32,000 nucleotides of DNA, taken from Geobacter metallireducens GS-15. GTDB lineage: Bacteria > Desulfobacterota > Desulfuromonadia > Geobacterales > Geobacteraceae. The DNA is taken from the NCBI RefSeq assembly GCF_000012925.1, contig NC_007517.1, forward strand, positions 3,720,001 to 3,752,000, given 5' to 3'. A model generated the notes under the pieces. That model did no database searches. It saw nothing but the letters and a program-made list of their open reading frames with translations, and had not been told where the DNA came from. Each line of letters opens with the position of its first letter. Within the stretch, counting starts at the first letter, position 1. A program made the position numbers and the translations under genes. Shown here piece after piece: positions 9,474 to 24,463 of this stretch.

Positions 9474-10426
9474 AGCAGGAACTCCTCCACCGGGGGCACG
9501 AATTCTCATTCCTCCAGGTGCTCCGGATCCTGGAGCTTCTCGGAGAACGGGACGGGACCAAACGGCCCGTGGAGGTGATCCCCCGGCTCTCCCTGGGCTT
9601 TCCGGCCGCGGACGTAGCCGGGGTGGAGCGGGTCGGCGACGGCTATCGGGTCATTGCCACGTTCCTGGGGCTCTACGGCCAGGCGACCCCGCTTCCCGCC
9701 TTCTACACCGAGGAACTTCTCGACGAGGAAGCCACCGACAGCAGCGCCGGCCGGGATTTCCTCGACATCGTCAACCGGCACATCTACGGCATCTTCGCGA
9801 ATGTTGCCCGGAAATACCGGCTCTTTCTCCAGGTGGACGAGCAGCGCAGCGACGCCGTCACGGAGCGGCTCCACGCCCTCGGGGGGTACGGCGAAGAAAC
9901 GCTTCGGGCCCAACTCCCCGATCCCCGGTCGCTCCTGCGCTACACGGGGCTCTTCGCCCAACACCCCCGCTCGGCCCTGGGGTTGCGGACGCTGCTGACC
10001 GATGCCCTCGACGCGCCGGTGGAGGTAATCTCCGCCGTCCCCCGCATCGTGACGGTACCGCCGGAGGAGCGCTCACGCCTCGGCACCATCGGCACCCTCG
10101 GCGAGGACGCCTTTGTGGGCTCCGAGATCCCCGACCGCTCCGGCATGTTCCGCATTGAGGTGGGTCCCTTGCGCCGCGACCGGTTCGCCGAACTCCTCCC
10201 CGGCACCCCGGAGCGCAAGCGCCTCGACCTCCTCGTCGCCCTCTACATCACCGACCCCCTCGCCTACGAAATCGAGCTGATCCTCGCCCCCGGCGAGGCC
10301 CCGCCGGCCATGCTCGGCAGCGGCATTCGGCTCGGATGGGATGTGTGGATGACGTCAGGGGCGGATGTGGGGCGGGTGTCGGTGAGCTTTCCCGGCGGAG
10401 GGGAGCCCCTCGCGGCACCTCGTTAA
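9437..10426 (+). CDS. tssG: Type VI secretion baseplate protein TssG (ImpH/VasB)
   Basis: 329 aa. EFSFLQVLRILE motif near the N-terminus. GTG start with GAGAGGAG 5 nt upstream. 37-nt overlap with tssF. Confidence 0.87.
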   Translation: MAAASRIPAAPLEQELLHRGHEFSFLQVLRILELLGERDGTKRPVEVIPRLSLGFPAADVAGVERVGDGYRVIATFLGLYGQATPLPAFYTEELLDEEATDSSAGRDFLDIVNRHIYGIFANVARKYRLFLQVDEQRSDAVTERLHALGGYGEETLRAQLPDPRSLLRYTGLFAQHPRSALGLRTLLTDALDAPVEVISAVPRIVTVPPEERSRLGTIGTLGEDAFVGSEIPDRSGMFRIEVGPLRRDRFAELLPGTPERKRLDLLVALYITDPLAYEIELILAPGEAPPAMLGSGIRLGWDVWMTSGADVGRVSVSFPGGGEPLAAPR

Positions 10427-10456
10427 CCGAACAAACCCAAGGAGAATCAACCATTC

Positions 10457-13093
10457 ATGCTGACCGTTGACCTTAAAGCCCTCATATCCCGCCTCAATCC
10501 CCACTGTTCCGGCGCCCTGGAAGGGGCGGCGGGGCTTTGCGTGGCCCGGGGCCACTACGAGGTGACCGTGGAGCACCTCTTGGCGCGGCTTCTGGACGAG
10601 CCGGGGGGTGACCTCCCCCTCATCCTCCGGGCCTTCGAGGTGGATGCCGCATCCGTGAAGGCCGGGATCACCAGGGTCCTCGACGAGCTTCCCTCCGGGA
10701 ACTCGGGGAAGCCGGTCTTCTCGCCGGTGCTTCTGGAGTGGCTCCAGGCAGCGTGGCTCATCACCTCCCTCGACCTCAACGAAGAGCGGATCCGCTCCGG
10801 CGCGCTGCTGCTGGCGCTCCTGGCCCGGCCGCTCCAGCTCACGGCGGGCCGCTACGTGGACCTTCTAATGGCCGTGGGGAGGGAGACGCTCCTCTCCCGC
10901 TTCGGCACGGCCACGGCCGGTTCGGTGGAGCATGCACCGACCAGTGTCCGCTCCGCAACCAGCGACGAGGCACCCAAGGGAACCACCTCTCTCGACCGCT
11001 TCTGCACCGATTTCACCCGCCAGGCGGCGGAAGGTAATATCGACCCGGTCTTCGGCCGGGACCGGGAGATCGGCCAGATGGTCGACATCCTGGCCCGGCG
11101 CCGGAAGAACAACCCCATCATCGTCGGCGAGGCGGGGGTCGGGAAGACCGCCGTAGCCGAAGGGCTTGCACTTCGGATTGTGGAGGGGGACGTGCCGGAG
11201 GCCCTCCGGGAGGTACGGCTCCTGGGGCTCGATCTGGGGCTTCTCCAGGCGGGGGCCGGAGTGAAGGGTGAGTTCGAGAACCGCTTGAAAAGCGTCATCG
11301 AGGAGGTGAAGGGGTCGCCGCGCCCCATCATCCTCTTCATCGACGAGGCCCATACCATCATCGGCGCCGGGGGGCAGACCGGCGGAGGTGACGCCGCTAA
11401 CCTCCTGAAACCGGCCCTGGCCCGAGGGGAACTGCGGACCATCGCCGCCACCACCTGGAGCGAGTACAAGAAATATTTCGAAAAGGACGCGGCCCTGGCC
11501 CGGCGCTTCCAGCCGGTGAAGCTGGACGAGCCGGACGTCGAGACCGCCGTCCTGATCCTGCGGGGTCTCAAGGAGAAGTACGAGGCGGCCCACGGGGTCA
11601 CCATCCGGGACGACGGCATCCGGGCGGCGGCGGAGCTTTCTTCCCGCTACCTGTCGGGGCGCCAGCTCCCGGACAAGGCAGTGGACCTCCTGGATACGGC
11701 GGCGGCCCGGGTGAAGCTCCTTCTCACCGGGAAGCCGGGGGCCGTGGAGGAGAAAGAGCGCCGCATCCAGGCTCTGGAGAGGGAAGAGGCGGCCATGGCC
11801 CGGGACCAGCTCCACGGCCGCCCCGTTGACGACGAGCGACTGGATCTCCTGAAGGCGGAATTGTTAACCCTGCGGGAGGAGTTGGCCGCCGTCACGGCGC
11901 GGTGGCACCGGGAACAGGAGCTGGCCGCGGAAGTGATGGCCCTTCGCAAGGAACTGTCGACGGAAGCGGAAGAAAACGAAGATCGGCGAGGACTGAAACG
12001 GCAGGTGACCGAGGCCACGGCTCGCCTAGCGGAGTTCCAGGGTGACGCCCCATTGGTACGGATCGAGGTGGAGCCGGAGGTGGTGGCCCGGGTGGTGGCC
12101 GACTGGACAGGCATCCCCCTGGGGAGCCTCCAGAAGGACCGGGCCGCCGGGGTCCTCACCCTGGAGGGCGACCTGCGCCGCCGCATCAAGGGGCAGGAGC
12201 CGGCCCTCTCCGCCGTGGCCGAGGTGCTCCGCTCCTCGGCGGCAGGGCTCAAGGACCCACGCCAGCCCCTGGGAGTTTTTCTCCTGGTGGGGCCGTCGGG
12301 GGTCGGGAAGACCGAGACGGCCCTGGCCGTGGCCGACCTCCTCTTCGGGGGGGAGCGGTTCCTCACGGTCATCAACATGAGCGAGTTCCAGGAGCGCCAC
12401 ACCACGAGCCGCCTCATCGGCTCGCCGCCGGGGTACGTGGGGTACGGCGAGGGGGGGGTCCTCACGGAGGCGGTCCGGCGCCAGCCCTACTCGGTGGTCC
12501 TCCTGGACGAAGTGGAGAAGGCCCACCCCGACGTCATGAACCTCTTCTACCAGGTCTTCGACAAGGGGATGCTGGCCGACGGCGAGGGGCGGGTCATCGA
12601 CTTCGCCAACACAGTCATCTTCCTCACGAGTAACCTGGCCTCGGATGTCATCACCTCCCTCTGTTGCGGGGATCAAGCACCGACGGCGGAGGGGCTGACC
12701 TCCGCCATCCGCCCCCACCTCTCCCGACACTTCAAGCCGGCGCTCCTGGCCCGGATGTCGGTGGTCCCCTACCTGACCCTGGCCCCCGAGTACCTGGGGG
12801 AGATCGTTACCCTGAAGCTGGGGCGGGTGGCGGAGCGGCTCCGGGAGAACAGCCGAACGGCGCTTTCTTGGACCCCGGCGGTCACGGAACGGATCGCGGC
12901 CCGCTGCACCGAGGTGGAGAGCGGCGCCCGGACCATCGACCATATCCTACGGAGCACGCTGCTGCCGCTTCTCTCCCGGGAAATTCTCCCCCGGCTCGGC
13001 ACCGGCGAGACGCCGGAGGCTATCAGGCTCGACACGACGGCCGACGGCGACTTTGCCGTCACCTTTGATACCAGTGGAGGCATGGAACAATGA
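10457..13093 (+). CDS. tssH: Type VI secretion AAA+ ATPase ClpV/TssH
   Basis: 878 aa. Clp N-domain. Two AAA+ modules with Walker A GEAGVGKTA and GPSGVGKTE. Coiled-coil middle region. Sits directly after tssG. Confidence 0.93.
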   Translation: MLTVDLKALISRLNPHCSGALEGAAGLCVARGHYEVTVEHLLARLLDEPGGDLPLILRAFEVDAASVKAGITRVLDELPSGNSGKPVFSPVLLEWLQAAWLITSLDLNEERIRSGALLLALLARPLQLTAGRYVDLLMAVGRETLLSRFGTATAGSVEHAPTSVRSATSDEAPKGTTSLDRFCTDFTRQAAEGNIDPVFGRDREIGQMVDILARRRKNNPIIVGEAGVGKTAVAEGLALRIVEGDVPEALREVRLLGLDLGLLQAGAGVKGEFENRLKSVIEEVKGSPRPIILFIDEAHTIIGAGGQTGGGDAANLLKPALARGELRTIAATTWSEYKKYFEKDAALARRFQPVKLDEPDVETAVLILRGLKEKYEAAHGVTIRDDGIRAAAELSSRYLSGRQLPDKAVDLLDTAAARVKLLLTGKPGAVEEKERRIQALEREEAAMARDQLHGRPVDDERLDLLKAELLTLREELAAVTARWHREQELAAEVMALRKELSTEAEENEDRRGLKRQVTEATARLAEFQGDAPLVRIEVEPEVVARVVADWTGIPLGSLQKDRAAGVLTLEGDLRRRIKGQEPALSAVAEVLRSSAAGLKDPRQPLGVFLLVGPSGVGKTETALAVADLLFGGERFLTVINMSEFQERHTTSRLIGSPPGYVGYGEGGVLTEAVRRQPYSVVLLDEVEKAHPDVMNLFYQVFDKGMLADGEGRVIDFANTVIFLTSNLASDVITSLCCGDQAPTAEGLTSAIRPHLSRHFKPALLARMSVVPYLTLAPEYLGEIVTLKLGRVAERLRENSRTALSWTPAVTERIAARCTEVESGARTIDHILRSTLLPLLSREILPRLGTGETPEAIRLDTTADGDFAVTFDTSGGMEQ

Positions 13094-13536
13094 ACCAGCA
13101 TCAAACAGCAATGGGTATCGCCAGGATGGCGTTTCTCCTCTCCCTTTCGCTCACGGCAGCGTGTGCCACCGTGAATACCGCTCCCGTCGAGGAGCAGGCC
13201 GGCCCCCAGGCGCCGGAGACAGGGCTGGAAGCCGAGCCACCCGCTCCCGTACCGGCACCGGCCGCCCCCCCGGCAGTGGCGCCGGTGACCCCTCAGGCAT
13301 CGGTCACCGTAACAACGATCCCTCTGGTCCCCGGGAAAATAACTCCCCGGCAGAAGTACGTGAACGTCCGCCCGGAGCCCTCCACCGGCAAGAAACCTGT
13401 CGCCGTGCTCTCGGGAGGAAAGTACGTGGAGGTGCTCGGCCGGGAGGGGACATGGGTGAAGATTCGCTGGACCCGGGGAAAGAAGGCCCATGAAGGATGG
13501 GTGGCCGGGAAATTTGTGGACACCGTTACTCCCTGA
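13090..13536 (+). CDS. Lipoprotein with Pro/Ala-rich linker and C-terminal bacterial SH3 (SH3b) domain
   Basis: 148 aa. Lipobox LTAAC. The linker is rich in P/A/E. The C-terminus KYVNVRPEPSTGKKPVAVLSGGKYVEVLGREGTWVKIRW...EGWVAGKFV is SH3b-like. ATGA overlap with the clpV stop. GGAGG lies 9 nt upstream. Confidence 0.7.
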   Translation: MNQHQTAMGIARMAFLLSLSLTAACATVNTAPVEEQAGPQAPETGLEAEPPAPVPAPAAPPAVAPVTPQASVTVTTIPLVPGKITPRQKYVNVRPEPSTGKKPVAVLSGGKYVEVLGREGTWVKIRWTRGKKAHEGWVAGKFVDTVTP

Positions 13537-13547
13537 ACCCTCGCCAC

Positions 13548-13577
13548 GGGGGCCGACCGTCGGCCCCCTCCCTTTTT
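13548..13577 (+). terminator. Intrinsic terminator after the T6SS/SH3b genes
   Basis: 8-bp GC stem GGGGGCCG / CGGCCCCC (13548-13555 and 13561-13568) with a 5-nt loop, followed by tcccTTTTT. Confidence 0.55.
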
Positions 13578-13669
13578 CCCTTACGGCTCGCCCTCTCCTC
13601 TCCTCAACCGCGGTTTCCTTCTCCCCGCTCCATATGTTCTCATTTATTTATTATTTCTCAAAAAACGCC

Positions 13670-13696
13670 TAAAGTTTCCCCATTCCCTACCGATAA
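13670..13696 (+). promoter_or_regulatory. Sigma-28 (FliA)-type promoter
   Basis: TAAAGTTT (13670-13677), an 11-nt spacer, then ACCGATAA (13689-13696). The enterobacterial consensus is TAAAGTTT-N11-GCCGATAA, so this matches 15/16 positions with exact spacing. An AT-rich tract lies upstream. It is 144 nt before the cheW ATG. Confidence 0.6.
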
Positions 13697-13839
13697 ACTA
13701 TACTACCTGCCCGGCAATTTCACCGCCCTGACACACGAAGTCAAACTGCATTGCAGATGCGTTGCCGTACCCGGCTTACACCAAAAGACGTTTTACGAAG
13801 CCCCACGCACACAAAAACCGAGGAGTAAAAGGCCGACCC

Positions 13840-14340
13840 ATGACATCGTTGCCAACCCTTGCCAAGGGGAGATCCGCTGCAGGGAAGCCCCTCCACCTGG
13901 TCGGCTTCCGGGTGGGGAATGAGGAATACTGCTTCGAGATCCTCACGGTGCAGGAGATCATCCGGATAGTACCCATCACTGCCGTTCCCGACGCTCCCGA
14001 GCATGTGGAGGGGATCATCAACCTCCGCGGCAGGATCGTCCCCATCATCGACTTCCGCCGGCGGTTCCGCATAACCGGCGAACGCACCGTCGACGAGGCG
14101 GACAGGGTCATCGTCGTGACCGGCACGGGGAACGCGACCGTCGGTTTCATCGTCGATGGCGTGAGCCAGGTCATGAAGCTGCCTGCCGAGGATCTGTCGC
14201 CTGCGCCGGCGGGAGGCGCGGGGTGCGACGCCGAGGCCATCCGGGGGGTAGGCAACGTGGGCGACCGGCTCGTCATCGTTCTCGATCTGGACAAGATGTT
14301 TTCCGCCGATGAACTAACCACTTTGACAGGAGTGAGCTGA
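13840..14340 (+). CDS. cheW: Chemotaxis coupling protein CheW
   Basis: 166 aa from ATG 13840 (the ORF track starts earlier, at 13762). CheW-like domain: LVGFRVGNEEYCFEILTVQEIIRIVPITAVPDAPEHVEGIINLRGRIVPIIDFRRRF...VGFIVDGVSQV. Confidence 0.9.
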   Translation: MTSLPTLAKGRSAAGKPLHLVGFRVGNEEYCFEILTVQEIIRIVPITAVPDAPEHVEGIINLRGRIVPIIDFRRRFRITGERTVDEADRVIVVTGTGNATVGFIVDGVSQVMKLPAEDLSPAPAGGAGCDAEAIRGVGNVGDRLVIVLDLDKMFSADELTTLTGVS

Positions 14341-14342
14341 CC

Positions 14343-14855
14343 ATGTCCGATCTCATGACCACCCGCGCGGCTCTCCAGGAGACCATGACCTTCCTCGGCG
14401 CCATCGCCAGCGGCATCGAAGAGGCCATCGGCGAATCCGCCAACAGCATCACCTACCTGGCTGGCAAACGGCTCGGCATGCAGCTTTCCGCCAATATCCG
14501 TAAGACCGACGACGTGGAGGAGGCCCTGGAAGCCGTTCACCAAGTGCTCCTCGACAACAACTGCCTCTGGCACTTCGAGCCGTTCAAGGCCCACGACCGG
14601 CCGGCCCTGGTCCAGACCACTGACAGCGGCGACGAGGATCTCCAGCTCGTTTTCCGGGACTGCATGATCCGCCAGTCCCTCTTTCGCTTCGGTCACCACC
14701 AGAAGGGGTCCCTCTGCACCATGATGTTCGGCTTCTTCTCCGGGGCGCTCCTGAACGTCATGGGGGTCGATTCCACCCTGGAGATCCTCCATGCGGGAGA
14801 AAACGCCTGCCTCAAGCGGCTGGTGATCCACAGGAAGAAGGGGGAAGACCAGTGA
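14343..14855 (+). CDS. V4R (4-vinyl-reductase-like, hydrocarbon-binding-protein family) domain protein
   Basis: 170 aa. N-terminal YLAGKRLG segment. C-terminal pattern LVFRDCMIRQ...GSLCTMMFGFFSGALLNVMG...ILHAGENACLKRLVI fits the V4R consensus (xFxC...C..xxGfxxGal...E..C...G...C.f). Starts 3 nt after cheW. Confidence 0.68.
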   Translation: MSDLMTTRAALQETMTFLGAIASGIEEAIGESANSITYLAGKRLGMQLSANIRKTDDVEEALEAVHQVLLDNNCLWHFEPFKAHDRPALVQTTDSGDEDLQLVFRDCMIRQSLFRFGHHQKGSLCTMMFGFFSGALLNVMGVDSTLEILHAGENACLKRLVIHRKKGEDQ

Positions 14856-15802
14856 GCACCGTACCCATAAATCTGGAATGGCTGAGCGACTGCTCGGGCT
14901 GCCATGTGGCCATCGTCGACCTGCACGAGAAAATCCTCGCGGTCCTGGAATCCGTCACCATCCAGCGCTGCCCGGTACTGACTGATGTGAAGGACTACCC
15001 GAAGGCGAAGCTGGGGCTCGTCTCCGGCGCCATCCGGACCGAGCACGACCGCCACGCGGCCATTGAGATGCGCAAGAGCTGCGACCTGATCATCGCCTGG
15101 GGCTCCTGCGCGGTGTACGGGGGGATCGCCGGTGCCGGCAATGTCCATTCCCGCCAGGAGATCATCGATGCAGTCTACATCGGCAACAAGACCACCGCTA
15201 CCCACGCTCCGCCAACGAAGGAGGTTTCGGCCCTGGAGCCGTCCGTCTCCCCCCTGGACAGCGTCATCGACGTGGACCTCTACCTCCCTGGCTGCGCACC
15301 GCACCCGGCCTTTGTATTCGATGCCCTCCTGGCGCTGCTGGAAGGGCGTTCCCCCCGCACCGCCACCGGTGAATCGGTCTGCGCCCGGTGCCGGAGGAAG
15401 ATGGAGAAGACGGAGGTTGACCGGATCAGGAAGAATTCGGAGGGGGTCCCCGACCCGGACCGCTGCTTCCTGAGCCAGGGATACCTCTGCATGGGATCGG
15501 TGACCCTGGACCGCTGCATGTCCCCCTGCCCCCTGAACGGGATACCGTGCAGCGGCTGCGCCGGCGCCACCATGCAGGTGCTGGCCGAGCCCAACCGCGA
15601 CATCCGCACCGAGATCGCCGAGCGGATGTCGCGCCTGACCGAGATCCCCCGGGAAGCCATCGTCCGGGAAATCGAGAGGACATCCAAGACCCACTACTCC
15701 TACACCATGGCGACCCCCATGATCGGCGAGAAGCCCACCTTTCTGATTAAAAAATGGACCGATGAGGAACGAGACGACTATGAACAAGACCATAACCATT
15801 GA
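14852..15802 (+). CDS. [NiFe]-hydrogenase small subunit, cytoplasmic group-3 type (MvhG-like size and Cys pattern)
   Basis: 316 aa with no Tat signal. Proximal-cluster motifs CSGCHVAIVD, GSCAVYGG, LPGCAPHP. C-terminal Cys-rich part CARCRR...CFLSQGYLCMG...CMSPCP...CSGCAG for further FeS clusters. GTGA overlap with the upstream gene. Confidence 0.88.
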   Translation: MSTVPINLEWLSDCSGCHVAIVDLHEKILAVLESVTIQRCPVLTDVKDYPKAKLGLVSGAIRTEHDRHAAIEMRKSCDLIIAWGSCAVYGGIAGAGNVHSRQEIIDAVYIGNKTTATHAPPTKEVSALEPSVSPLDSVIDVDLYLPGCAPHPAFVFDALLALLEGRSPRTATGESVCARCRRKMEKTEVDRIRKNSEGVPDPDRCFLSQGYLCMGSVTLDRCMSPCPLNGIPCSGCAGATMQVLAEPNRDIRTEIAERMSRLTEIPREAIVREIERTSKTHYSYTMATPMIGEKPTFLIKKWTDEERDDYEQDHNH

Positions 15803-17201
15803 TCCCGTCACCCGCATCGAAGGGCATGCGCGGGTCTTCATCGACCTGGACGATGGGGGAGCGCTCAAAGCGGCGGGGCTCGTGGTGAACGAGCTGCGGG
15901 GATTCGAGAAGATCCTGACCGGCATGGACGCGGACCGGATGCCGCTGGTCACGGCCCGCATCTGCGGGGTCTGTCCCACGGCCCACCATCTGGCCGCCAC
16001 CAACGCCCTGGACAACGCCGCGGGCGTTGAGCCCCCAACCGCCGCGAAACTCCTGCGGGAGCTCATGTACATGGGGCACCTGATCCACTCCCATTGCCTC
16101 TCCCTCTTCGTGCTCCAGGGGCCGGACCTGGTCCTGGGGCTCGACGCCGACCCCGCCATCCGCAACGTGGTGGGGGTGGTGCAGGCGGTCCCCGACATCG
16201 CCAGAAAGGCCCTCCAGTGCCGCTCCATCGGCCAGAAGATCAACGAGCTGGTGGGGGGACGGGGAACCCACCCCGTCACCTCGGTGGCCGGGGGGATCGC
16301 CTTTGTGCTCGACGCCGACCGTGAGCGCCAGCTGAACGCCTGGATCCAGGAAGCCCACGGGCTCGTGCTGGAACTGGCGCCGGTGGTGAAGCAACTCCTC
16401 ATGAAGATGCTCGACGCCAACCCGGCGATGCTGGAACAGTGGGTCATCCCGGCCTGGAGTGTGGGCACCGTCAAGGGCGACGGCACCATCGCCCTGGTGA
16501 ACGGAGAGATACGGGCCATTGACGAAAGCGGAGCCCGGAAGGCCCAGTTCCCCACCGCCGGCTACGACACCCACCTCTCCGAAGCGGCGGTGGATTTCTC
16601 CTACATGAAGCAGGTCTCCTTTGTGGAGGGCGAGACCCGCCACGACTACCGGGTCGGCCCCCTGGCGCGGCTGAACATCTCCGACCGGTACGGCACCCCC
16701 CTGGCGGACCGTGAGCGGGAGGAATTCATCCGGACCGTGGGCCGCCCCTGCCATGCCAATGCCCTCCAGCCCTGGGCCCGTCTGATCGAGCTTCTCTACT
16801 GCACAGAGCGGGCGCAGGAAATCATGGCCTCCCCGGAGATCCACGGCGAGACGCGGGTGCCGGTGAAATTCTCCGGCGGACGGGGGGTGGGGCACGTGGA
16901 GGCCCCCCGGGGAACCCTGATCCACGACTACGAGATCGACGAGAACGGCATCGTCCGGGCCGCGAACCTCATCGTGGCGACCCAGCAGAACTATGCCCTG
17001 ATCAACACCATGATCGCCCAGGCCGCCACGTCCCATGTCATCAACCGCCCCGACGACCAGGCCCTGCTCAACGCGGTGGAGTTCGGCATCCGCTGCTACG
17101 ACCCCTGCCTTTCCTGCGCCACCCATGCCTTGGGGGCCATGCCGCTGGAAATCGTCGTGAACCGTGCCGACAGGCCCCATCTCATCAGGAGGAACTGCTG
17201 A
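15780..17201 (+). CDS. [NiFe]-hydrogenase large subunit, group-3 type, with cleavable C-terminal extension
   Basis: 473 aa from ATG 15780 (GAGGAA 10 nt upstream). ITIDPVTRIEGH. N-terminal Ni-binding motif RICGVCPTAHH. C-terminal DPCLSCATH followed by a 24-aa extension. Confidence 0.92.
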   Translation: MNKTITIDPVTRIEGHARVFIDLDDGGALKAAGLVVNELRGFEKILTGMDADRMPLVTARICGVCPTAHHLAATNALDNAAGVEPPTAAKLLRELMYMGHLIHSHCLSLFVLQGPDLVLGLDADPAIRNVVGVVQAVPDIARKALQCRSIGQKINELVGGRGTHPVTSVAGGIAFVLDADRERQLNAWIQEAHGLVLELAPVVKQLLMKMLDANPAMLEQWVIPAWSVGTVKGDGTIALVNGEIRAIDESGARKAQFPTAGYDTHLSEAAVDFSYMKQVSFVEGETRHDYRVGPLARLNISDRYGTPLADREREEFIRTVGRPCHANALQPWARLIELLYCTERAQEIMASPEIHGETRVPVKFSGGRGVGHVEAPRGTLIHDYEIDENGIVRAANLIVATQQNYALINTMIAQAATSHVINRPDDQALLNAVEFGIRCYDPCLSCATHALGAMPLEIVVNRADRPHLIRRNC

Positions 17202-17452
17202 TGGTCGAGATCAAGCTCCATGAAGAGGCGTGCCGCGGCTGCAGGATGTGCGTGGACATCTGCCCCACCAAGGTCTTTGCCTTCGACGAGGAGAAGCGGC
17301 TCTGCGCGGTGGAGCACCGGGACGACTGTATCGCCTGCCTGAGCTGCGCCTACCTCTGCCCCTCCGGGGCGCTGCGCCACGAGGATTATCACGTTGTGAA
17401 AAACTTCTACCGGGACCTGGCTTTCTGCGCCAAGATGGAGAAATTCATATGA
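17201..17452 (+). CDS. 2x[4Fe-4S] ferredoxin
   Basis: 83 aa. CRGCRMCVDICP and CIACLSCAYLCP motifs. TGATG overlap with the large subunit. Confidence 0.85.
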   Translation: MVEIKLHEEACRGCRMCVDICPTKVFAFDEEKRLCAVEHRDDCIACLSCAYLCPSGALRHEDYHVVKNFYRDLAFCAKMEKFI

Positions 17453-17907
17453 GCACCACGACCACGGAACAGGTCACCCTTGAGGACCATGTAAACGCCG
17501 CGACCGAGGTTGCCTTTCTGCTGGACATCTTCGCCGCCACCGTCGACACCATCATGGGGGGGGCAACGGCGTCGGTGGGGAGGATCGCCGGGCGGGAAAT
17601 GGCGCGCAAGCTCCCGATCCACCTGACAAACCCGACCCTGGACGAGATCGTCGCGCTCCTCAATTCCCGCATGAAGGCCGGGTACCAGTTCCGGCTGGAG
17701 GGGGAAGGGACGGAGCGCGTCCTCCTGTTCGACCACTGCGTTCTGCAGGAGGTCTGCGCCAAGCGGGGGCTCACCCTGGGGACGGCCCTCTGCCGCCTCT
17801 TCCATGCCTACCTGGACGGAATCCTGAACGAACTCATCTGCCGCCCGGTGAAATCGGAGGTTGTCTCATGCGGGGACCAGTGCCGCCTGAGTCTCAGGAC
17901 TCAGTAG
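17449..17907 (+). CDS. Second V4R-domain protein
   Basis: 152 aa from ATG 17449 (GGAG 8 nt upstream, ATGA overlap with the ferredoxin). The ORF track frame starts further upstream. RIAGREMA segment. C-terminal LLFDHCVLQEVC...ALCRLFHAYLDGILNELI...VVSCGDQCRLSL is V4R-like. Confidence 0.65.
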   Translation: MSTTTTEQVTLEDHVNAATEVAFLLDIFAATVDTIMGGATASVGRIAGREMARKLPIHLTNPTLDEIVALLNSRMKAGYQFRLEGEGTERVLLFDHCVLQEVCAKRGLTLGTALCRLFHAYLDGILNELICRPVKSEVVSCGDQCRLSLRTQ

Positions 17908-18389
17908 CTTTCCGCAGAATCGTTGTGGTCTGCGTGGGCAACGACCTGGTGGCCGACGACGCCGCGGGGTTCGAGGTCTACCGGAAGCTGGCCGGCTCGT
18001 CCCTACCGCCGGGGGTCACGCTCCACTACGCGGCCGTGGGGGGGATTGACCTCCTTGACTACCTGACCGGCGATGAGTCGGCCATGATCGTCGTGGACGC
18101 GGTCCAGTTCGGCGCGCCAACGGGAACCATCCACAACCTCGGCTGGAATGAGCTCCCCGATTTCGGCGCCGGGGCCATATCGGCCCATTTCATCGGCCTG
18201 AAGGAAACCATCGACATCGGGAGATGCCTCTACCCGGAGCTGATCCCGTCAACGGTGTTGCTGGTGGGGATCGAGGGACGCCGCTTCGACCAGACCCGCG
18301 ACGCCATGTCGCCGGAGGTGGCCGCCGCCATCGAGCCCGCCACCGCCTCCATCCGGGAACATCTTCACACTCTCCGCCAAGGAACCTGA
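17868..18389 (+). CDS. Hydrogenase maturation endopeptidase
   Basis: 173 aa. RIVVVCVGNDLVADDAAGFEVYRKL resembles the HycI/HybD-family N-terminus. GGAGG lies 7 nt upstream. Confidence 0.85.
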   Translation: MRGPVPPESQDSVAFRRIVVVCVGNDLVADDAAGFEVYRKLAGSSLPPGVTLHYAAVGGIDLLDYLTGDESAMIVVDAVQFGAPTGTIHNLGWNELPDFGAGAISAHFIGLKETIDIGRCLYPELIPSTVLLVGIEGRRFDQTRDAMSPEVAAAIEPATASIREHLHTLRQGT

Positions 18390-18390
18390 C

Positions 18391-19995
18391 ATGAAGACAT
18401 CCACCGCCAAAGAGACAAAACCGACTCTGCACAGCGAGATACAGAGGCTCGCCGAAGCCATGATGAACGGCAGGCTCGACGAGCGGGGAAACCCCGCCCA
18501 GTTCACCGGTGACGACGCCGCCCTGGTCCTCACGGTCAACCGGATGCTGGACACCCTCGTGACCCCGCTGCGCCTGGCCGCCGGCGCCATCGACGAGATC
18601 GCCCACGGCAGGATCCCACCCTTCGTCATCGACGACTATGCCGGGGAATACAACACCCTCAAGCGCAACCTCAACACCCTCCTGGCAACGCTGTACGGCC
18701 TCGACAGCGAGACCCGGCACCTCATCGGCAACATCGGCGAGGGACGACTCCAGACCCGGGGCAACGACTGGGATTTCGAGGGGATCTGGCGGGACCTCAT
18801 CAGGGGGGTGAACGGCACCCTCGACGCGGTAATCGACCCGGTGAACGAAGCCGGGACCGTCCTGCAGCGCCTGGCCCAATACGATCTGAGCGCCCGGATG
18901 CGGGGGAAGTACCACGGTGAGCATGCCGCCATCAAGAAGGCCATGAACGCCACGGCGGAATCCCTCCACTCCGCCGTGACCCAGATGGCGGAGACGGTGG
19001 ACCTGGTCTCCGCCGTCGGCGAGCAGATTGCCGCCAGCAGCCAGACCGTCACCGCGGGTACCCGGGAGCAGGAGACGCAACTCACCGAGGCGGCCAGCGT
19101 CCTCAATCACATCGCCGACACCTCCCAGAAGAGCGCCAAAAACACCGCCGACGCCCGGCAGGTGGCCCAGCAGGCCGCCGAGTCCATCGGCACCGCCAAG
19201 ACCGTCATGGACCAGATGCTCCACGCCATGGGGGAGATCCGCGGCTCCGCCGACAACACCGTCGGCATCGTCCAGCAGATCGACGCCATCGCCAAGGAGA
19301 CCGACAAGCTCTCCTCCAACGCCACCAGCAAGGCGGCCCTGATCCGCTCCTCGGCCAGCGGCTTCAGCGTGGTCGCCTCCGAGGTGCGGAACCTGTCGAA
19401 GCGGTGCGAGGAGGCAGTCTCCCGGCTCCACGACTTCCGGCGCCGGGTCACTTTCACCCCCAATGCCGGCACCGACAGCACCACCGATCAGCTGGTGAGC
19501 GAGTATCTCGACCTCATCCACGACCTGAAGAGCGTCGCCTCCAACTCCGGGCTCCTGGGAGTGAACGCGGCCATTTCGGCGGCCCACGTGGAGGGGGCCG
19601 GCAACGACTTCCAGGTCCTCACCGAAGAGATCCGTGAACTGGCCAAGCGCTCCACCGACGCGGCCAAGCAGACCGACACCCTCATCAGGACATCGGTGGA
19701 GCAGGCCCGCAAGGGAGAGGACCTTTCCCAGGCAATCGACGGCCACCTCACCACGGCGGTGACCGGGGCATCCACCATCAGCTCCCTCACCGACGAGATC
19801 TCCCAGAGCAGCCAGGAACAGGCCAGCGCCATCGAGGAGATCAGCTGCTCCGTCACCCACATCAACGAGGTCACCCGGCAGAACGCCGCCTGCGCCCTCT
19901 CGTCGTCCGAAGTGGCCCAGGGGCTGGGGCAGCAGGTGACGAAGTTGTCGAAGATGGTGAGCAAGTTCCGGCTGGCGAGGGCGGCGGGGCAATAA
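18391..19995 (+). CDS. Soluble methyl-accepting chemotaxis protein, poly-HAMP N-terminus, duplicated degenerate signalling tip
   Basis: 534 aa with no hydrophobic segment long enough for a TM helix. About four HAMP-like units in residues 14-195. MCP signalling-domain helices are present (SSQEQASAIEEIS...VTRQNAA). Two tip-like motifs are described in the findings. Confidence 0.9.
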   Translation: MKTSTAKETKPTLHSEIQRLAEAMMNGRLDERGNPAQFTGDDAALVLTVNRMLDTLVTPLRLAAGAIDEIAHGRIPPFVIDDYAGEYNTLKRNLNTLLATLYGLDSETRHLIGNIGEGRLQTRGNDWDFEGIWRDLIRGVNGTLDAVIDPVNEAGTVLQRLAQYDLSARMRGKYHGEHAAIKKAMNATAESLHSAVTQMAETVDLVSAVGEQIAASSQTVTAGTREQETQLTEAASVLNHIADTSQKSAKNTADARQVAQQAAESIGTAKTVMDQMLHAMGEIRGSADNTVGIVQQIDAIAKETDKLSSNATSKAALIRSSASGFSVVASEVRNLSKRCEEAVSRLHDFRRRVTFTPNAGTDSTTDQLVSEYLDLIHDLKSVASNSGLLGVNAAISAAHVEGAGNDFQVLTEEIRELAKRSTDAAKQTDTLIRTSVEQARKGEDLSQAIDGHLTTAVTGASTISSLTDEISQSSQEQASAIEEISCSVTHINEVTRQNAACALSSSEVAQGLGQQVTKLSKMVSKFRLARAAGQ

Positions 19996-20014
19996 AAGCA
20001 GCCAATGCGGGACA

Positions 20015-20051
20015 AAAAAAGGGGGAGCCGGCAGTCAGCTCCCCCTTTTTC
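20015..20051. terminator. Bidirectional intrinsic terminator between the MCP and aminotransferase genes
   Basis: An A-run, stem GGGGGAGC (20022-20029) / GCTCCCCC (20039-20046) with a 9-nt loop, then a T-run. It is flanked by converging stop codons at 19995 and 20078. Confidence 0.7.
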
Positions 20052-20077
20052 ATCACCACTCCCTGAAGAACCCTGTG

Positions 20078-21382
20078 TCAGGACTTCAGATACTCCGCAA
20101 TCTTCTTCGCCAGGGTCTGGTAGATCCGAAGGCATTCGGCCTCGTCCTTCTCCAGGAGGGTCACCCGGAACCCCTGCAGCGGCGTATTGAAGGAGGAGAG
20201 CGGCACGATGCAGATGCCGGTGCTGGCCAGGAGGTAGTAGACGAACCGCTTGTCCGGGGAGACGCCGGGGGCGTTCACGAGCCCTTCCACCAGCTCCCGC
20301 ACCTCGGCGTTCTCGATGGGGAGGGACTGGCCGTTGGTGAGAAGGCCATCCCGGAAGGCCACGGACATGTAGAAGGCGCCGTTAGTCCGGTTCACCATGA
20401 GTTCGGGAACTTCCCTGAGGCAGTCGAAGGTGATGGTGCTCATCTTCTCATAGCGCCTGATCCGCTCCTGGAGGTAGGTCTGGTATTCCGGGTGTTTCAT
20501 GATAGCCGGGATGCACTTCTGCGGCAGGGTGGTGGAGCAGACCTCGTTCATCTTGGCGGAGAGGATGGAGTTGATGTACTTGCGGAACTGGTCATCCTTA
20601 GCGCCGTTGTAGACCTCGATCCAGCCGCAGCGGGAGCCGGGCCAGGGTATCTCCTTGGAGATCCCCTTCATGGCGATGGCCGGCACGTCGCCGATAACGT
20701 CGGAGATGGGGACGGTGGTCTGGCCGTTGTAGGTGATGTTGTTGTAGACCTCGTCGGCGATGATGAAGAGCTCGTATTTCCGGGCGATAGCGACGATCTT
20801 CTCCAGGGTCTCCCTGGAGAAGACCATGCCGGTGGGGTTGTCGGGGTTGATGAGGAGGATGCCGGAAATCTGGGGATTGTACCGGACATGGTTCTCCATG
20901 TCCTCCAGGTCGGGGAACCAGTTGTTGGCCGGGTCAAGCCGGTAGCAGACCGGCGAGGCCTGGGCGTGGGCCGCCTCGCCGATGGAGTGGGTGGTGTAGG
21001 TAGGGGACGGCATGAGGATGCGGCTTTCGTGGCGGAGGTTGCCGTAGACCGTGGAGATGGCGTCGCCGAGGCCGTTGAAGAAGATGATGTCGTCGGGGGT
21101 GATCCGGGCACCGCCGCGGTTGTTGGTGAGGCCGCAGATGAACTCCCGGGTCTCCAGGACCCCCCGGGTGTGGCAGTAGCCCCAGGTGTCATTCTCCATC
21201 ACCTCATTGGCCACGATCTCCTTCATCCAGCGGGGAATCTCCTCCCCCTTGACGATCGGGTCGCCAATGTTCTCCCAGTTGATCTTCACCCCGTGCTTCT
21301 GGAGCTTCTCCGCCACGTTGACGATGTTGCGGATCTCGTAGGTCAGTTCGCCCGCTCCGGGCGTCACCAGTTCGTTTCTCAC
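20078..21382 (-). CDS. PLP-dependent aminotransferase class I/II (alanine-transaminase-like)
   Basis: 434 aa from GTG 21382 (AGGGAG about 7 nt upstream); the ORF track extends to 21490. Fold-type I features: LLINPDNPTG, IADEVY, and PLP-lysine region GISKEIPWPGSRCGW. Confidence 0.88.
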   Translation of the reverse strand: MRNELVTPGAGELTYEIRNIVNVAEKLQKHGVKINWENIGDPIVKGEEIPRWMKEIVANEVMENDTWGYCHTRGVLETREFICGLTNNRGGARITPDDIIFFNGLGDAISTVYGNLRHESRILMPSPTYTTHSIGEAAHAQASPVCYRLDPANNWFPDLEDMENHVRYNPQISGILLINPDNPTGMVFSRETLEKIVAIARKYELFIIADEVYNNITYNGQTTVPISDVIGDVPAIAMKGISKEIPWPGSRCGWIEVYNGAKDDQFRKYINSILSAKMNEVCSTTLPQKCIPAIMKHPEYQTYLQERIRRYEKMSTITFDCLREVPELMVNRTNGAFYMSVAFRDGLLTNGQSLPIENAEVRELVEGLVNAPGVSPDKRFVYYLLASTGICIVPLSSFNTPLQGFRVTLLEKDEAECLRIYQTLAKKIAEYLKS

Positions 21383-21634: not shown

Positions 21635-22225
21635 TCACTCCAGAGCGATGAGGAGCCGGCCATCCTCGTCCCGCCACCGCAGCCATCCCACGACAGCCAG
21701 ATCCAGAAGCACCTGGATCCGATCCCCGTCCACGGAGATGATCCTGAAGCTCCGCTCGGGGGTGAGAGGTTCCAGATCCGGCACCGTATCCCCCCCGCTT
21801 CCCCAGAGAAGGTACAAGGGTTTCTTGAGTCCCCGCAAGAGCCGCGCCTCCCTCCCCTTGAGCAGCTCATCCCATAAAACGAAGGGCCACGCCCGACGCG
21901 GCTTCAGCCATGCCGCGCGCCCGGCGTCATCATAAATGACCTTCAGCCACCCTCCCTTGCGGGCGGTGACCACAAGGGGAAACTCACCGGGCGGAATCTT
22001 GTGGGGAATTGCCAGATGGGGCAACGACGCAGCGCTCTTTTCGGCGATCCGGCCGATCCCCGGCTCCCCGTAGAGGATGAGCTGAGGGGGAGCCGGCTCG
22101 CCGGGGACGGCACCAACCAGAAGAACGCCTATCCCCGTGTCGGGGCGGGGAGGAGGCGCCGCACCGGATACCGCTACGAAGAGAGCAACACAGATGACCG
22201 GCACGATCGTACGGATGAAGGCCAT
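21635..22225 (-). CDS. Exported hypothetical protein (possible SH3b-like repeats)
   Basis: 196 aa from ATG 22225 (TGAccATG junction with the cupin gene). N-terminal signal peptide MAFIRTIVPVICVALFVAVSGA. GWLKVIYDDAGRAAWLK and VVGWLRWRDEDG resemble SH3b strands. No confident family call. Confidence 0.55.
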   Translation of the reverse strand: MAFIRTIVPVICVALFVAVSGAAPPPRPDTGIGVLLVGAVPGEPAPPQLILYGEPGIGRIAEKSAASLPHLAIPHKIPPGEFPLVVTARKGGWLKVIYDDAGRAAWLKPRRAWPFVLWDELLKGREARLLRGLKKPLYLLWGSGGDTVPDLEPLTPERSFRIISVDGDRIQVLLDLAVVGWLRWRDEDGRLLIALE

Positions 22226-22227
22226 GG

Positions 22228-22692
22228 TCAGCAAAAGAGTGCCACAAGTGACGCGTGGTAGGTACCGGCTCCCCCGTCCCCCTCGGCAGGAGCCCAGGAG
22301 GCCTTTTCCTCCCCGGCAAGGGGGAGGTACGGTCCGGCCTTGGCCTCGAAAAAAACCGTGCCGGGCTCAAGGCTCACGACGGTGTGAAACTCCCCGTGGG
22401 GGATGTCGACAGCCACCGCATCGCCGGGTTGGAGGAGACGAGTGCCGGTCACCGCCCCCGCCCCGTCGAAGGAGACGACGCCGAGCCGCCCCCGCAGGAT
22501 CACCATCGACTCGTCCTTGTTGGGGTCGAGATGCCGGTGAGGCTGGATGTAGGAGCCGGGCTCCATGGCGTTCAGGAGCCGGTGGCAGCAGAAATCGTCG
22601 CTGGGGTGGAGGTTGTGGTTCTTCCGGAGGCGGGCGCTGCCACGGGCCTCACCGGTAACCTGATCGAGAAGCTCCCGGGTGATGATCTTCAC
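22228..22692 (-). CDS. Cupin-fold metalloprotein (WbuC-like)
   Basis: 154 aa from GTG 22692. RKNHNLHPSDDFCCHRLLNAMEPGSYIQPHRH...ESMVILRG...IPHGEFH resembles the cupin His motif. The longer track ORF would overlap the upstream gene. Confidence 0.72.
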   Translation of the reverse strand: MKIITRELLDQVTGEARGSARLRKNHNLHPSDDFCCHRLLNAMEPGSYIQPHRHLDPNKDESMVILRGRLGVVSFDGAGAVTGTRLLQPGDAVAVDIPHGEFHTVVSLEPGTVFFEAKAGPYLPLAGEEKASWAPAEGDGGAGTYHASLVALFC

Positions 22693-22699
22693 GGGAGGC

Positions 22700-23050
22700 C
22701 TACCGGTCCGCGAGGGCAAAAAGGTTGCCGTCGGGATCGGCCACCACCGCCATCTTTCCCCAGGGGCTCTGCTCCAGGGGCTGATCAAATCGGACGCCCG
22801 TATCGGTCAGCTCGCGGCAGAAGTCGTCGATATCCTTCACCCGCAGGGTGATGCCGGTGTGGCGCCCCGCCAGGGCCGCGGCCTCGTCGGTGAGGGCCAT
22901 GGCCACCCCGAGGGTCGCGCCGCCGGAGAAAAACTCCATCATCGTCACCCCCTCCTGGGTCAGGGGGAGCTTCAACTGCTCCTTGTAGAACCGTTTCGCC
23001 GCCTCGAAATCGCGGACAAAGACCACCACGTTCTTCATCGCTTCAACCAT
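22700..23050 (-). CDS. VOC/glyoxalase-family protein
   Basis: 116 aa from ATG 23050 (AGAGAGG upstream). VVFVRDFEAAKRFYKEQLKL...WGKMAVVADPDGNLFAL is typical of the glyoxalase/bleomycin-resistance fold. Confidence 0.8.
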   Translation of the reverse strand: MVEAMKNVVVFVRDFEAAKRFYKEQLKLPLTQEGVTMMEFFSGGATLGVAMALTDEAAALAGRHTGITLRVKDIDDFCRELTDTGVRFDQPLEQSPWGKMAVVADPDGNLFALADR

Positions 23051-23209: not shown

Positions 23210-23278
23210 ACAGAGCAACTGAGAATTTATCAAAAACAGTCTGAAAGGTTTTTCCCAGATTTTGCTCAGTTGCTCTGT
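23210..23278. repeat. 14-bp perfect inverted repeat spanning the stop codon of the hydrogenase protease gene
   Basis: ACAGAGCAACTGAG (23210-23223) and CTCAGTTGCTCTGT (23265-23278) are separated by a 41-nt AT-rich spacer. The right arm encodes the last codons and the stop codon. Confidence 0.6.
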
Positions 23279-23784
23279 TGCTCAGTGTTTCGAGTGCATT
23301 TTTCAGGATCAAGCGGCTCGGGAACCACTCCCCACAGGGCAAGCTCCGCGAGGACCTTCTCCACAAGATGGTCCACCTGCGCCGCCACCGCCGGCGTGAG
23401 CTCCATCCCCAGTTCCACCGACTCCGGCTGCACCCCCCACAGGACCATCTCGACGGGACAGCTCCCCTGGAACTCGGCCACGGCCAAAAGATCCTGGAGC
23501 CCCATCTGGTGGGGAGAGAGCTTGGTCCGGAAGGCCACCGGAATCTCCTCCCCCGCCAGCCGCACCACCGTCCCCGGTGGTCCGCCGGTCTCCACGGCAT
23601 CCACCAGGAGGAGCCGCTCCACGCCGTCCAGGTAAGGGAGCAGGTCGAGGCCGAGGGTGCCGCCGTCCATGACCGTCACTCCTTCGGGGAAGCGGCACCC
23701 GTCCATGAGCCGCTGCGCCACCCGTACGCCGGCGCCGTCGTCGGTCATGATCAGGTTCCCGATGCCGAGCACGAGAATCGACAT
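23266..23784 (-). CDS. hyaD: Hydrogenase maturation protease (HyaD/HybD family)
   Basis: 172 aa. MSILVLGIGNLIMTDDGAGVRVAQRL. Last gene of the uptake hydrogenase operon. Confidence 0.9.
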   Translation of the reverse strand: MSILVLGIGNLIMTDDGAGVRVAQRLMDGCRFPEGVTVMDGGTLGLDLLPYLDGVERLLLVDAVETGGPPGTVVRLAGEEIPVAFRTKLSPHQMGLQDLLAVAEFQGSCPVEMVLWGVQPESVELGMELTPAVAAQVDHLVEKVLAELALWGVVPEPLDPEKCTRNTEQQSN

Positions 23785-23785
23785 T

Positions 23786-24454
23786 CTACTCCCCCCGCTT
23801 CACCGGCTTGTAGCCGCCGAAGATGCTCGACATGACCCCGCCCCGTTCCTTCACGTCCATGAGCCAAGCGCTGTAGATGTGATGGATGGCAAAGGCGATG
23901 AGAAGCCACATGCCCATGTGGTGGGTGAGCCGCATCCCCTGGTTGCTGAAGAGAGCGTAGAGCGGCGTGAGGAGAACATGCGCCAAACCGCCTGGCGCGT
24001 GCTCGGCATCGAGGGCGAAGCCGGTGCCGGCCATCACCAGATAGAGGACAAAGACGAGAAGGTACGTGGCTCCGGCCAGGGCGTTGTGGCCGGTGGGGTG
24101 GGGAACCTTCCGGGAGAGGAAGACGTAGTAGAGGAACATCCGCCCCATGTCGCGCCGCCCTTCGGGATAGATGAACGGGACAAACTCCCGCCACCCGGCG
24201 TAGCGGTTCCCCGCGAAGGCCCACCAGATGCGGCTCACGATACTCACGGCAAAGGCATACCCTGCCGTAAGATGCACCACCCGCACCCAACCCATGACAA
24301 AGTCGGCGGGAACGAGCCCCAGGGTCCTGGGGGAGCCGATGTAGAAGCCGGTGACCGAGAGGACGATGATGGCGATCACGTTGACCCAGTGGGTCAGCCG
24401 CACCGGGACCTCCCAGACGTACTTTTCGTAAAGACAGCTCCGGTTCCGTGCCAT
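23786..24454 (-). CDS. hyaC: Ni/Fe-hydrogenase b-type cytochrome subunit
   Basis: 222 aa. Four predicted TM helices with conserved His residues (RLTHWVN..., HLTAGYAF, THHMGMW, AIHHIY). Confidence 0.9.
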   Translation of the reverse strand: MARNRSCLYEKYVWEVPVRLTHWVNVIAIIVLSVTGFYIGSPRTLGLVPADFVMGWVRVVHLTAGYAFAVSIVSRIWWAFAGNRYAGWREFVPFIYPEGRRDMGRMFLYYVFLSRKVPHPTGHNALAGATYLLVFVLYLVMAGTGFALDAEHAPGGLAHVLLTPLYALFSNQGMRLTHHMGMWLLIAFAIHHIYSAWLMDVKERGGVMSSIFGGYKPVKRGE

Positions 24455-24463
24455 GGCGACCTC

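Follow-up and report, generated by a model that had tools for sequence, protein, structure and literature searches.

A conserved group-3 [NiFe]-hydrogenase cassette linked to a soluble chemoreceptor in Geobacter metallireducens is a candidate hydrogen-sensing module

Molecular hydrogen (H2) is a central currency of anaerobic communities. Its established sensors are the [NiFe]-hydrogenases of group 2b, whose large subunit has no C-terminal extension and which do without a maturation protease. Typical examples are HoxBC with HoxJ in Cupriavidus necator and HupUV with HupT in Rhodobacter, which are cytoplasmic two-subunit [NiFe]-hydrogenases acting in trans via a co-encoded signalling protein (PMC6978683). 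The [FeFe]-hydrogenases of group C2, entered in HydDB as 'chemotactic (putative)', embody a related concept, that of a hydrogenase linked to a methyl-accepting chemotaxis protein (MCP) and proposed to sense H2, and in the class table of that database, as far as it could be read, chemotaxis linkage is named only for this group (PMC5037454). H2 taxis has been observed or suspected in Methanococcus maripaludis (PMC3817446), and 'potential hydrogen chemotaxis' has been raised for a sulfate reducer (PMC12004927), while no report of a receptor for H2 taxis was found in the searchable literature; a neighbourhood study of 2025 does no more than name an MCP cluster in its list of genes close to [NiFe]-hydrogenases. 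The present analysis concerns a window of 32,000 nucleotides (nt) from Geobacter metallireducens GS-15 (contig NC_007517.1, positions 3,720,001 to 3,752,000 of the forward strand; all coordinates without a locus name are counted from its first letter), in which a plus-strand block at 13840-19995 joins a group-3-type [NiFe]-hydrogenase to a ferredoxin, two V4R-like proteins, a maturation protease and a soluble MCP. The organism is well studied and chemotactic, and genetic tools have been reported for it. No description of the cassette was found in the searchable literature, and the preliminary description of the locus likewise knew of no characterised example; hydrogenases are never mentioned in the G. 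metallireducens genome paper, nor in the survey of Geobacter chemotaxis. We put at roughly 60% the probability that the cassette is a sensory hydrogenase module feeding a chemosensory pathway. The best reading of its input to chemotaxis is a signal driven by H2 or by H2/ferredoxin redox state, and the operon would probably represent an undescribed means for bacteria to swim in response to H2 gas.

The list of open reading frames (ORFs) places eight overlapping or almost abutting genes between two terminators, in the order cheW (13840-14340, 166 residues), V4Ra (14343-14855, 170 residues), hydrogenase small subunit (14852-15802, 316 residues), hydrogenase large subunit (15780-17201, 473 residues), 2x[4Fe-4S] ferredoxin (17201-17452, 83 residues), V4Rb (17449-17907, 152 residues), HybD/HycI-type maturation endopeptidase (17868-18389, 173 residues) and soluble poly-HAMP MCP (18391-19995, 534 residues). 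The tight packing that had been claimed holds at every junction. The cheW stop at 14340 is followed by the V4Ra ATG at 14343, a GTGA at 14852-14855 joins V4Ra to the small subunit, and the two hydrogenase genes overlap at 15780-15802, the small subunit ending at 15802 and the large subunit beginning with ATG 15780; large-subunit orthologues begin MNKTITI, and a second ATG lies upstream at 15762 in the window. A TGATG at 17199-17203 connects the large subunit to the ferredoxin and an ATGA at 17449-17452 the ferredoxin to V4Rb, which ends at 17907, past the protease ATG at 17868, while TGA-c-ATG at 18387-18393 separates protease and MCP by a single base. The cheW ORF is open from TTG 13762, and ATG 13840 is most likely its start. 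Both boundaries of the block were likewise borne out. At the 5' end, the terminator scan located an intrinsic terminator at 13548-13577 on the plus strand, which folds with -20.2 kcal/mol (z -3.6) and ends the preceding transcription unit. At the 3' end, a bidirectional intrinsic terminator at 20014-20051 (hairpin 20016-20050, with an A-run before and a T-run after it) is shared with the convergent aminotransferase gene; it was overlooked by the terminator scan owing to its loop and recognised from the sequence, and its folds of -22.3 kcal/mol on the plus and -28.2 kcal/mol on the minus strand (z -4.4 and -6.4) were equalled by no shuffle.

The linkage of hydrogenase and receptor is far from unique to this strain. 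A scan with the large subunit, taking one genome per species, yielded 47 loci, which were compared with the eight window proteins by tblastn. About 33 of the 47 carry a seven-gene core of V4Ra, small subunit, large subunit, ferredoxin, V4Rb, protease and MCP in the same order, with identities of 65-97% for the large subunit and 49-97% for the MCP, the closest genome locus being that of G. hydrogenophilus (large subunit 97%). Together with further copies from metagenomes and contig look-ups (L048, L053, L060, L129 and L130), the core is found as a block in about 40 loci with unrelated flanks, in several orders of Desulfobacterota and in unbinned metagenomes. Judged by record titles, the carriers include Geobacter, Geomonas, Trichlorobacter, Pelobacter, Desulfuromonadaceae, Desulforapulum, Desulfocicer, Desulfobacteraceae, Syntrophobacterales and some oddly labelled metagenome-assembled genomes, whose taxon labels may be wrong; as labelled, they span Desulfuromonadia, Desulfobacteria, Syntrophia and Desulfobulbia. 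Clustering of the flanking ORFs returned no neighbour family in more than nine loci, the commonest being hypF, hypB, hypC, hypD and hypE, which lie directly 5' of the cassette in about nine loci (including L010, L011, L016, L029, L031 and L037) and are the sole recurrent flanking genes. Because the flanks change while the core stays, the block appears to move and persist as a unit.

Within the cassette, the hydrogenase genes are the most conserved, and their products form a group of their own. In a neighbour-joining tree of 187 group-3 large subunits, all 40 cassette sequences fall into one clade, with L056 plus P0363, then P0366, then P0362 as successive sisters. In a library of 1.84 billion representatives, the clade shrinks to one cluster at 50% identity (79% identical to the query), the next clusters being 43-48% identical, and cassette hydrogenases are at most 48% identical to any other hydrogenase. 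Relatives at 36-41% identity adjoin the same three recurring neighbour gene families, putatively Hox diaphorase subunits and a protease as read from size and order only; unlike these relatives, the cassette loci include no HoxF/U-sized diaphorase among their recurring gene families. One metagenome scan, for which the sister clusters served as seeds, relied on overly general patterns and returned mostly generic group-3 enzymes 38-45% identical, L053, L056 and L060 being the informative cases.

Three natural variants bear on the connection between hydrogenase and receptor. First, the protease and the MCP are fused in frame in two separate clusters at 90% identity (P0298 and P0313), and in L048 (8001-10082) the frame of the HycI-type protease runs through the MCP ATG with no stop codon. 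Second, in the sister-clade locus L056 (1328-3927; large subunit 47% identical), the ferredoxin is fused to a V4Rb-like domain with its Cys pattern kept, and this fusion is followed by a Roadblock/LC7 protein and a 491-residue coiled-coil protein, with no MCP on the contig. Third, in Desulfofustis sp. PB-SRB1 (L030, 10664-11647), the cassette is intact and the MCP position is occupied by a 327-residue protein with cyclic nucleotide monophosphate (cNMP)-binding and PilZ domains, whose start overlaps the protease stop. All three are consistent with an input made up of hydrogenase, ferredoxin and V4R proteins and coupled to a signalling output that can be exchanged, and an MCP placed there by accident would hardly account for them; they argue for a physical sensory unit, and the L056 fusion supports contact between ferredoxin and V4R protein. 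The proposal that hydrogenase, ferredoxin and V4R proteins provide the input to the MCP is thus strengthened as regards coupling, by the conserved block, the clade, the three variants and the promoter in relatives described below, while cheW, which the preliminary description had counted as part of the system, does not belong to the conserved core.

The hydrogenase itself resembles a catalytic enzyme. Apart from V4R, the domain assignments made from the sequence were matched by hidden Markov models (HMMs) for CheW, Oxidored_q6, NiFeSe_Hases, Fer4, HycI and MCPsignal. The large subunit matches NiFeSe_Hases (PF00374) with 115.9 bits against a cut-off of 25.8, and among its motifs RICGVCPTAHH and DPCLSCATH do not vary across 37 members of the clade, in which RIEGH is invariant too; a C-terminal extension of 24 residues follows DPCLSCATH. 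The small subunit matches Oxidored_q6 (PF01058) with 95.1 bits and carries 12 conserved cysteines (C14, C17, C86, C148 and eight within residues 167-227), a set that would hold three iron-sulfur (FeS) clusters, the cluster types being inferred. The Ni and FeS ligand motifs, described earlier as complete, are present, the former invariant and the latter conserved in the clade. The protease matches HycI with 49.5 bits and TIGR00072 with 112.2 bits (cut-off 47.45), and in alignment with E. coli HybD (1CFZ) it places D31, the D of VVDAV and the H of SAHF at HybD positions 16, 62 and 93. In HybD these are Glu16, Asp62 and His93, which we take to be the metal-binding residues. Because the invariant motifs, the C-terminal extension, the conserved cysteines and the metal-ligand positions of the protease are all kept, the hydrogenase looks catalytic and is predicted to be conventionally matured. 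The idea, raised by the fusions, that the protease is a dead docking domain was rejected, as the HybD metal-ligand positions are retained.

Membership in group 3, also claimed at the outset, is supported by the best matches and by the separate clade in the tree. No twin-arginine translocation (Tat) motif was found in the small-subunit N-terminus MSTVPINLEWLSDCSGCH, and comparison with PDB and NCBIfam led first to MvhA, VhuA, NAD-reducing and sulfhydrogenase enzymes, the top PDB sequence match of the large subunit being MvhA (5ODC_F, 3.6e-97), followed by other cytoplasmic group-3 enzymes. The Mvh/Vhu (3c) and Hox (3d) enzymes, which give the best sequence and HMM matches, share with the cassette the Ni-Fe and FeS motifs, a cytoplasmic location and maturation by an endopeptidase; they differ in being only about 36-48% identical and in their partners, since the cassette has no MvhD/HdrABC or HoxFU and its constant partners are the ferredoxin, the V4R-like proteins and the MCP. 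Orthology to Mvh/Vhu was ruled out because the NCBIfam equivalog cut-offs were missed by a wide margin, with 355.2 bits for the large subunit against VhuA (cut-off 800) and 232.6 bits for the small subunit against VhuG, its best model (cut-off 450; residues 6-246 covered). Neither MvhD nor Hdr was detected by Pfam or NCBIfam among the eight window genes or among the conserved neighbour families of the cassette loci. Beyond the VhuG model, the C-terminal 70 or so residues of the small subunit (247-316; 15590-15802) are strongly conserved in the clade (AEPNRDIRTEI..., KPTFLIKKW). HoxB, the small subunit in group 2b, likewise has a C-terminal extension, which is reportedly required for complex formation with the kinase. 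In other respects, the cassette departs from group 2b: it is a group-3 enzyme that keeps the large-subunit C-terminal extension and a dedicated endopeptidase, it has a ferredoxin and two V4R-like proteins in addition, and its output is an MCP (or a cNMP-binding/PilZ protein in L030) and not a histidine kinase of the HoxJ/HupT type. Assignment to the group 2b regulatory hydrogenases thus fails on the extension, the protease and the missing kinase partner. Relative to [FeFe] group C2, the metalloenzyme is unrelated (Ni-Fe site versus H-cluster), and taxa and accessory proteins differ; C2 is itself only putatively chemotactic.

The ferredoxin (Fer4 and Fer4_7; Fer4 44.4 bits) ends in a conserved KNFYRD tail and lies directly before V4Rb. 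For V4Ra and V4Rb, Pfam and NCBIfam gave nothing above threshold, and the V4R call was therefore made from structure and profile comparison. Against a V4R (PF02830) threshold of 31 bits, the best V4Ra orthologue reaches 15.6 and the window protein has no match, whereas V4Rb scores 26.2 bits with ATC_hydrolase (cut-off 28.1) and its L030 orthologue 28.3. An AlphaFold (AF2) model of V4Ra from a 43-sequence alignment, with a predicted local distance difference test score (pLDDT) of 79, found as top Foldseek matches the phenol-sensor domains of MopR/PoxR/DmpR (E 5e-5, template-modelling score 0.58), TRAPP Bet3, the V4R protein MJ1460 and H-NOX, pointing to a V4R/Bet3/H-NOX fold. V4Rb aligns colinearly with the V4Ra profile over 140 columns (hhalign probability 82.6%, E 1e-5) and is probably a distant paralogue within the ATC-hydrolase/MetOD1/V4R superfamily; its profile matched no PDB sequence even at E 10. 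The earlier claim of two V4R proteins thus stands at the level of fold for V4Ra and of superfamily for V4Rb, and does not reach the Pfam V4R threshold. Existing labels are compatible: V4Ra is a 'predicted hydrocarbon binding protein' in the JGI annotation, and a protein of G. metallireducens RCH3 that matches V4Rb at 100% identity bears the UniRef name 'Metanogen output domain-containing'. The V4Ra family comprises 752 clusters at 90% identity (E <= 0.001). Invariant residues are C107, H118, C125, H150 and C156 in V4Ra (the 43-sequence alignment, A1) and C97, C103, C115, H119 and C145 in V4Rb (alignment A3). Galperin and colleagues have related V4R, HNOB, ATC hydrolase and the methanogen output domain MetOD1, which is fused to receiver domains in methanogens (PMC5847659). 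By its model, V4Ra would share its fold with MopR/PoxR/DmpR, H-NOX and REC-MetOD1 proteins and would place a Cys/His cluster at the position of the MopR zinc site; it differs from MopR-type V4R domains in lacking a Pfam V4R match over threshold, and V4Rb has four invariant cysteines, not a Cys/Glu zinc site. H-NOX proteins are sensors of the stand-alone kind and regulate kinases or cyclases in trans. No association of V4R, H-NOX or MetOD1 domains with a hydrogenase and a ferredoxin was found reported in the searchable literature.

The receptor at the end of the cassette offers no input domain of its own. It matches MCPsignal (PF00015) with 102.8 bits (cut-off 34.6) and HAMP_2 with 123.9-127.6 bits (Pfam on the full length and on sub-sequences), and has neither a transmembrane segment nor a ligand-binding domain; no PAS or other sensor domain was found with Pfam at E up to 1. 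Among NCBIfam models, Aer2 fits best, with 215.9 bits against a cut-off of 1200. Like Aer2 of Pseudomonas aeruginosa and Vibrio, it is a soluble receptor of concatenated HAMP_2-type domains and a methyl-accepting domain, and it differs from Aer2 in having no PAS or other sensor domain and in its duplicated signalling tip. In Aer2, a haem-PAS sensor lies between the HAMP domains. The earlier picture of a sensor-less poly-HAMP receptor without transmembrane helix is accurate, with the qualification that, of the HAMP units in the poly-HAMP region (residues 14-192; 18430-18966, plus strand), two have HMM support (about 38-102 and 129-192) and two HAMP-like segments between them are recognised at pattern level only. 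In 40 orthologues, conservation is 0.77-0.80 in HAMP residues 57-192, 0.73-0.74 in the tips and 0.61 in the arms; with 41 of 136 residues invariant, residues 57-192 are the most conserved part of the protein. Since the HAMP array is more conserved than tips and arms, it may serve as a docking surface for conserved partners. The motif R-G-N-x-W-D-x-x-G-x-W in a HAMP connector (residues 123-133; 18757-18789), the densest invariant run of the receptor, is a candidate partner-docking site.

The signalling part is unusual in another respect. With phmmer, MCP residues 224-343 align to positions 2-121 of the Tsr fragment 1QU7 and residues 372-529 to positions 68-225, and because the two alignments overlap there, the hairpin-tip segment of about 54 residues (Tsr fragment 68-121) is present twice, at residues 291-343 (19261-19419) and 372-425 (19504-19665), both on the plus strand. 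A variable linker of 28 residues (19420-19503; conservation 0.32) separates the copies, both of which are conserved in all orthologues, the half kept best being the post-tip helix in copy 1 and the pre-tip helix in copy 2. The duplicated tip could form a single-chain four-helix tip. However, the AlphaFold monomer (pLDDT 74.6, predicted template-modelling score 0.34) has the chain turn within the variable linker, between two unbroken helices of 175 residues, and this single long hairpin conflicts with two hairpins, alignment and model thus disagreeing. EQ/QE pairs occur at Tsr-equivalent positions (REQETQ, SQEQAS), and there is no C-terminal pentapeptide. Identity with Gmet_1078, the lone 36H receptor of G. 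metallireducens, was considered and rejected, as Gmet_1078 belongs to che cluster 1 and bears a DWKEF pentapeptide (PMC2577667). The best 120 MCP matches are all 50-98% identical and share one common architecture. In two Desulfuromonadales loci, a second, conventional MCP (844 residues, HAMP and MCPsignal) lies directly 3' of the cassette MCP (L023, 12410-14944; L047, 12571-15021).

CheW matches its Pfam family (PF01584) with 126.6 bits, covering model positions 2-137 of 138. When the window was compared with L018, L019, L021, L023, L026, L047 and L129, the CheW proteins beside cassettes formed two groups only 32-36% identical to each other, whereas the other cassette proteins are 62-72% identical, a disparity which suggests that cheW was recruited more than once, independently. 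The gap between cheW and V4Ra is about 125-185 nt in L001, L002 and L033, compared with 2 nt in the window.

A connection with motility is suggested by the promoter region. A sigma-28 (FliA)-type promoter, TAAAGTTT-N11-ACCGATAA, lies at 13670-13696 on the plus strand and matches 15 of the 16 specified bases of the consensus applied, TAAA(GTTT)-N11/15-GCCGATAA; it is unique in the window, and shuffles lead one to expect 0 such sites. The near-consensus promoter proposed before was thus recovered, with one mismatch. Sites matching 11-12 of 12 bases precede cheW in the window and in L001, L002 and L033, and sites with 10 of 12 precede V4Ra in five loci without cheW, a score that 4% of random 350-nt windows reach. 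For the G. metallireducens group at least, the predicted promoter would link the operon with the flagellar regulon. A crude scan of 13000-20500 for sigma-70-like promoters gave no site and hence no sign of internal promoters. Because an Rfam scan of the whole window was without a match, the leader of about 140 nt appears to hold no riboswitch.

Taken together, these relationships lead us to infer a scheme in which signalling runs from the hydrogenase to the receptor with H2 as the stimulus. Electrons released when the large subunit splits H2 at its Ni-Fe site would travel along the small subunit's three FeS clusters, enter the 2x[4Fe-4S] ferredoxin of the cassette and go on to the Cys-rich site of V4Rb. 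The V4R proteins, or else the entire hydrogenase complex, may dock on the poly-HAMP array, which would read their redox or conformational state in trans, whereupon the MCP would modulate the CheA kinase via CheW and the flagellar motor would be steered; in G. metallireducens, the operon would be expressed with the flagellar regulon from the sigma-28 promoter. The specific relay from ferredoxin through V4R protein to HAMP array is much less probable than a sensory module as such. A more far-reaching synthesis can be offered tentatively, and in its entirety it is rather more likely to be wrong than right: a new sensory class of [NiFe]-hydrogenases would have arisen from catalytic group-3 enzymes, in which a matured hydrogenase, a ferredoxin and two V4R-fold adaptors sit on a poly-HAMP array and confer direct H2 chemotaxis, with the HybD-like protein maybe a tether, the duplicated tip a single-chain pseudo-dimeric tip with its own CheW requirement, and the same input serving MCP, cNMP/PilZ or Roadblock as alternative outputs.

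Several observations weigh against a sensory module that feeds chemotaxis. The case for it is comparative throughout. The enzyme has a fully catalytic look, with the RIEGH glutamate, three predicted FeS clusters, the C-terminal extension and an active-looking protease, and a metabolic role is possible. cheW lies 5' of the cassette in only about 10 related loci and is outside the conserved core; the evidence for a sigma-28 promoter is weak beyond close relatives, and the tree that defines the clade carries no support values. The Cys site in MopR that is equivalent to the V4R-like site binds structural zinc. Growth of G. metallireducens on H2 is not known, which fits a sensing role and equally some metabolic role. 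In addition, che-like pathways of Geobacter often control functions besides swimming (PMC2577667).

Among the alternatives, energy or redox taxis survives best, although we consider it unlikely. The module would then report on the low-potential ferredoxin pool, which the hydrogenase would equilibrate with H+/H2 or for which it would act as a reference electrode, with the V4R proteins and the MCP reading the result. Such a role would suit the dedicated ferredoxin, which is invariant in the cassette and fused to a V4R-like domain in L056, as well as the typically reversible nature of group-3 hydrogenases, the Aer2-like poly-HAMP architecture typical of internal-state receptors, and an organism that is not known as an H2 oxidiser. 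However, a whole Ni-Fe enzyme with its own protease is an expensive ferredoxin reader, the hydrogenase genes are the best conserved of the cassette, and the hyp genes often beside it, together with the uptake hydrogenase operon 3 kb away in the window, indicate H2 physiology. Less probable again is a sensory module with an output other than swimming, in which the MCP would either feed a che-like pathway for biofilm, pili or gene expression or nucleate a separate cytoplasmic array. Geobacter genomes have 6-7 che clusters each, for several of which roles outside motility are predicted (PMC2577667), the doubled signalling tip is unusual, PilZ/cNMP or Roadblock proteins take the output position in relatives, and cheW is absent from most cassettes; set against this are the near-consensus flagellar sigma-28 promoter in the window and its closest relatives and the fact that PilZ proteins are themselves frequent regulators of the flagellar motor. 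An ordinary metabolic ferredoxin-linked hydrogenase, with MCP and cheW as co-regulated passengers or an independent receptor and with the V4R-like proteins as assembly or accessory subunits, would account for the intact catalytic and maturation features, the best matches to catalytic Mvh, Vhu and Hox enzymes and the adjoining hyp genes in several loci, but we regard it as the least probable alternative and decidedly improbable, given that the MCP position is kept in about 40 loci despite changing flanks, that protease and MCP are fused in frame, that Desulfofustis replaces the MCP by another signalling protein, that the sister clade carries Roadblock/LC7, that the MCP has no sensor domain of its own and that no known physiological partner of group-3 enzymes is encoded.

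If a sensory hydrogenase module is indeed what the cassette encodes, it would add a sensory branch to the group-3 [NiFe]-hydrogenases, which are now treated as metabolic, and would reveal how a poly-HAMP receptor that has no sensor can be driven in trans, while V4R/MetOD1-type domains would gain a defined signalling role. The reading of hydrogenase genes in metagenomes would also be affected, because those of this clade would be counted there as H2 metabolism of the Mvh or Hox type. The cassette would extend the idea of the sensory hydrogenase in a new form and is, as far as sequence comparison can indicate, a concrete candidate for an H2-taxis receptor.

The surroundings of the block in the window belong to other systems. 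On its 5' side, a type VI secretion cluster at 5357-13536 encodes TssJ, TssK/VasE, TssE/gp25, TssF, TssG and ClpV, followed by a gene for an SH3-domain lipoprotein, and this type VI secretion/SH3-lipoprotein unit stops at the terminator just 5' of the sigma-28 promoter. On the 3' side, the convergent aminotransferase gene is followed by a minus-strand group-1 uptake hydrogenase operon, and between the two lie two small overlapping genes (21635-22788, minus strand), one without a Pfam match and the other assigned to DUF6016. The uptake operon (23266-27290, minus strand), 3 kb downstream of the cassette, is a complete membrane-bound group-1 [NiFe]-hydrogenase operon comprising a small subunit with a C-terminal domain, a large subunit (804 bits), a cytochrome b and its own protease.

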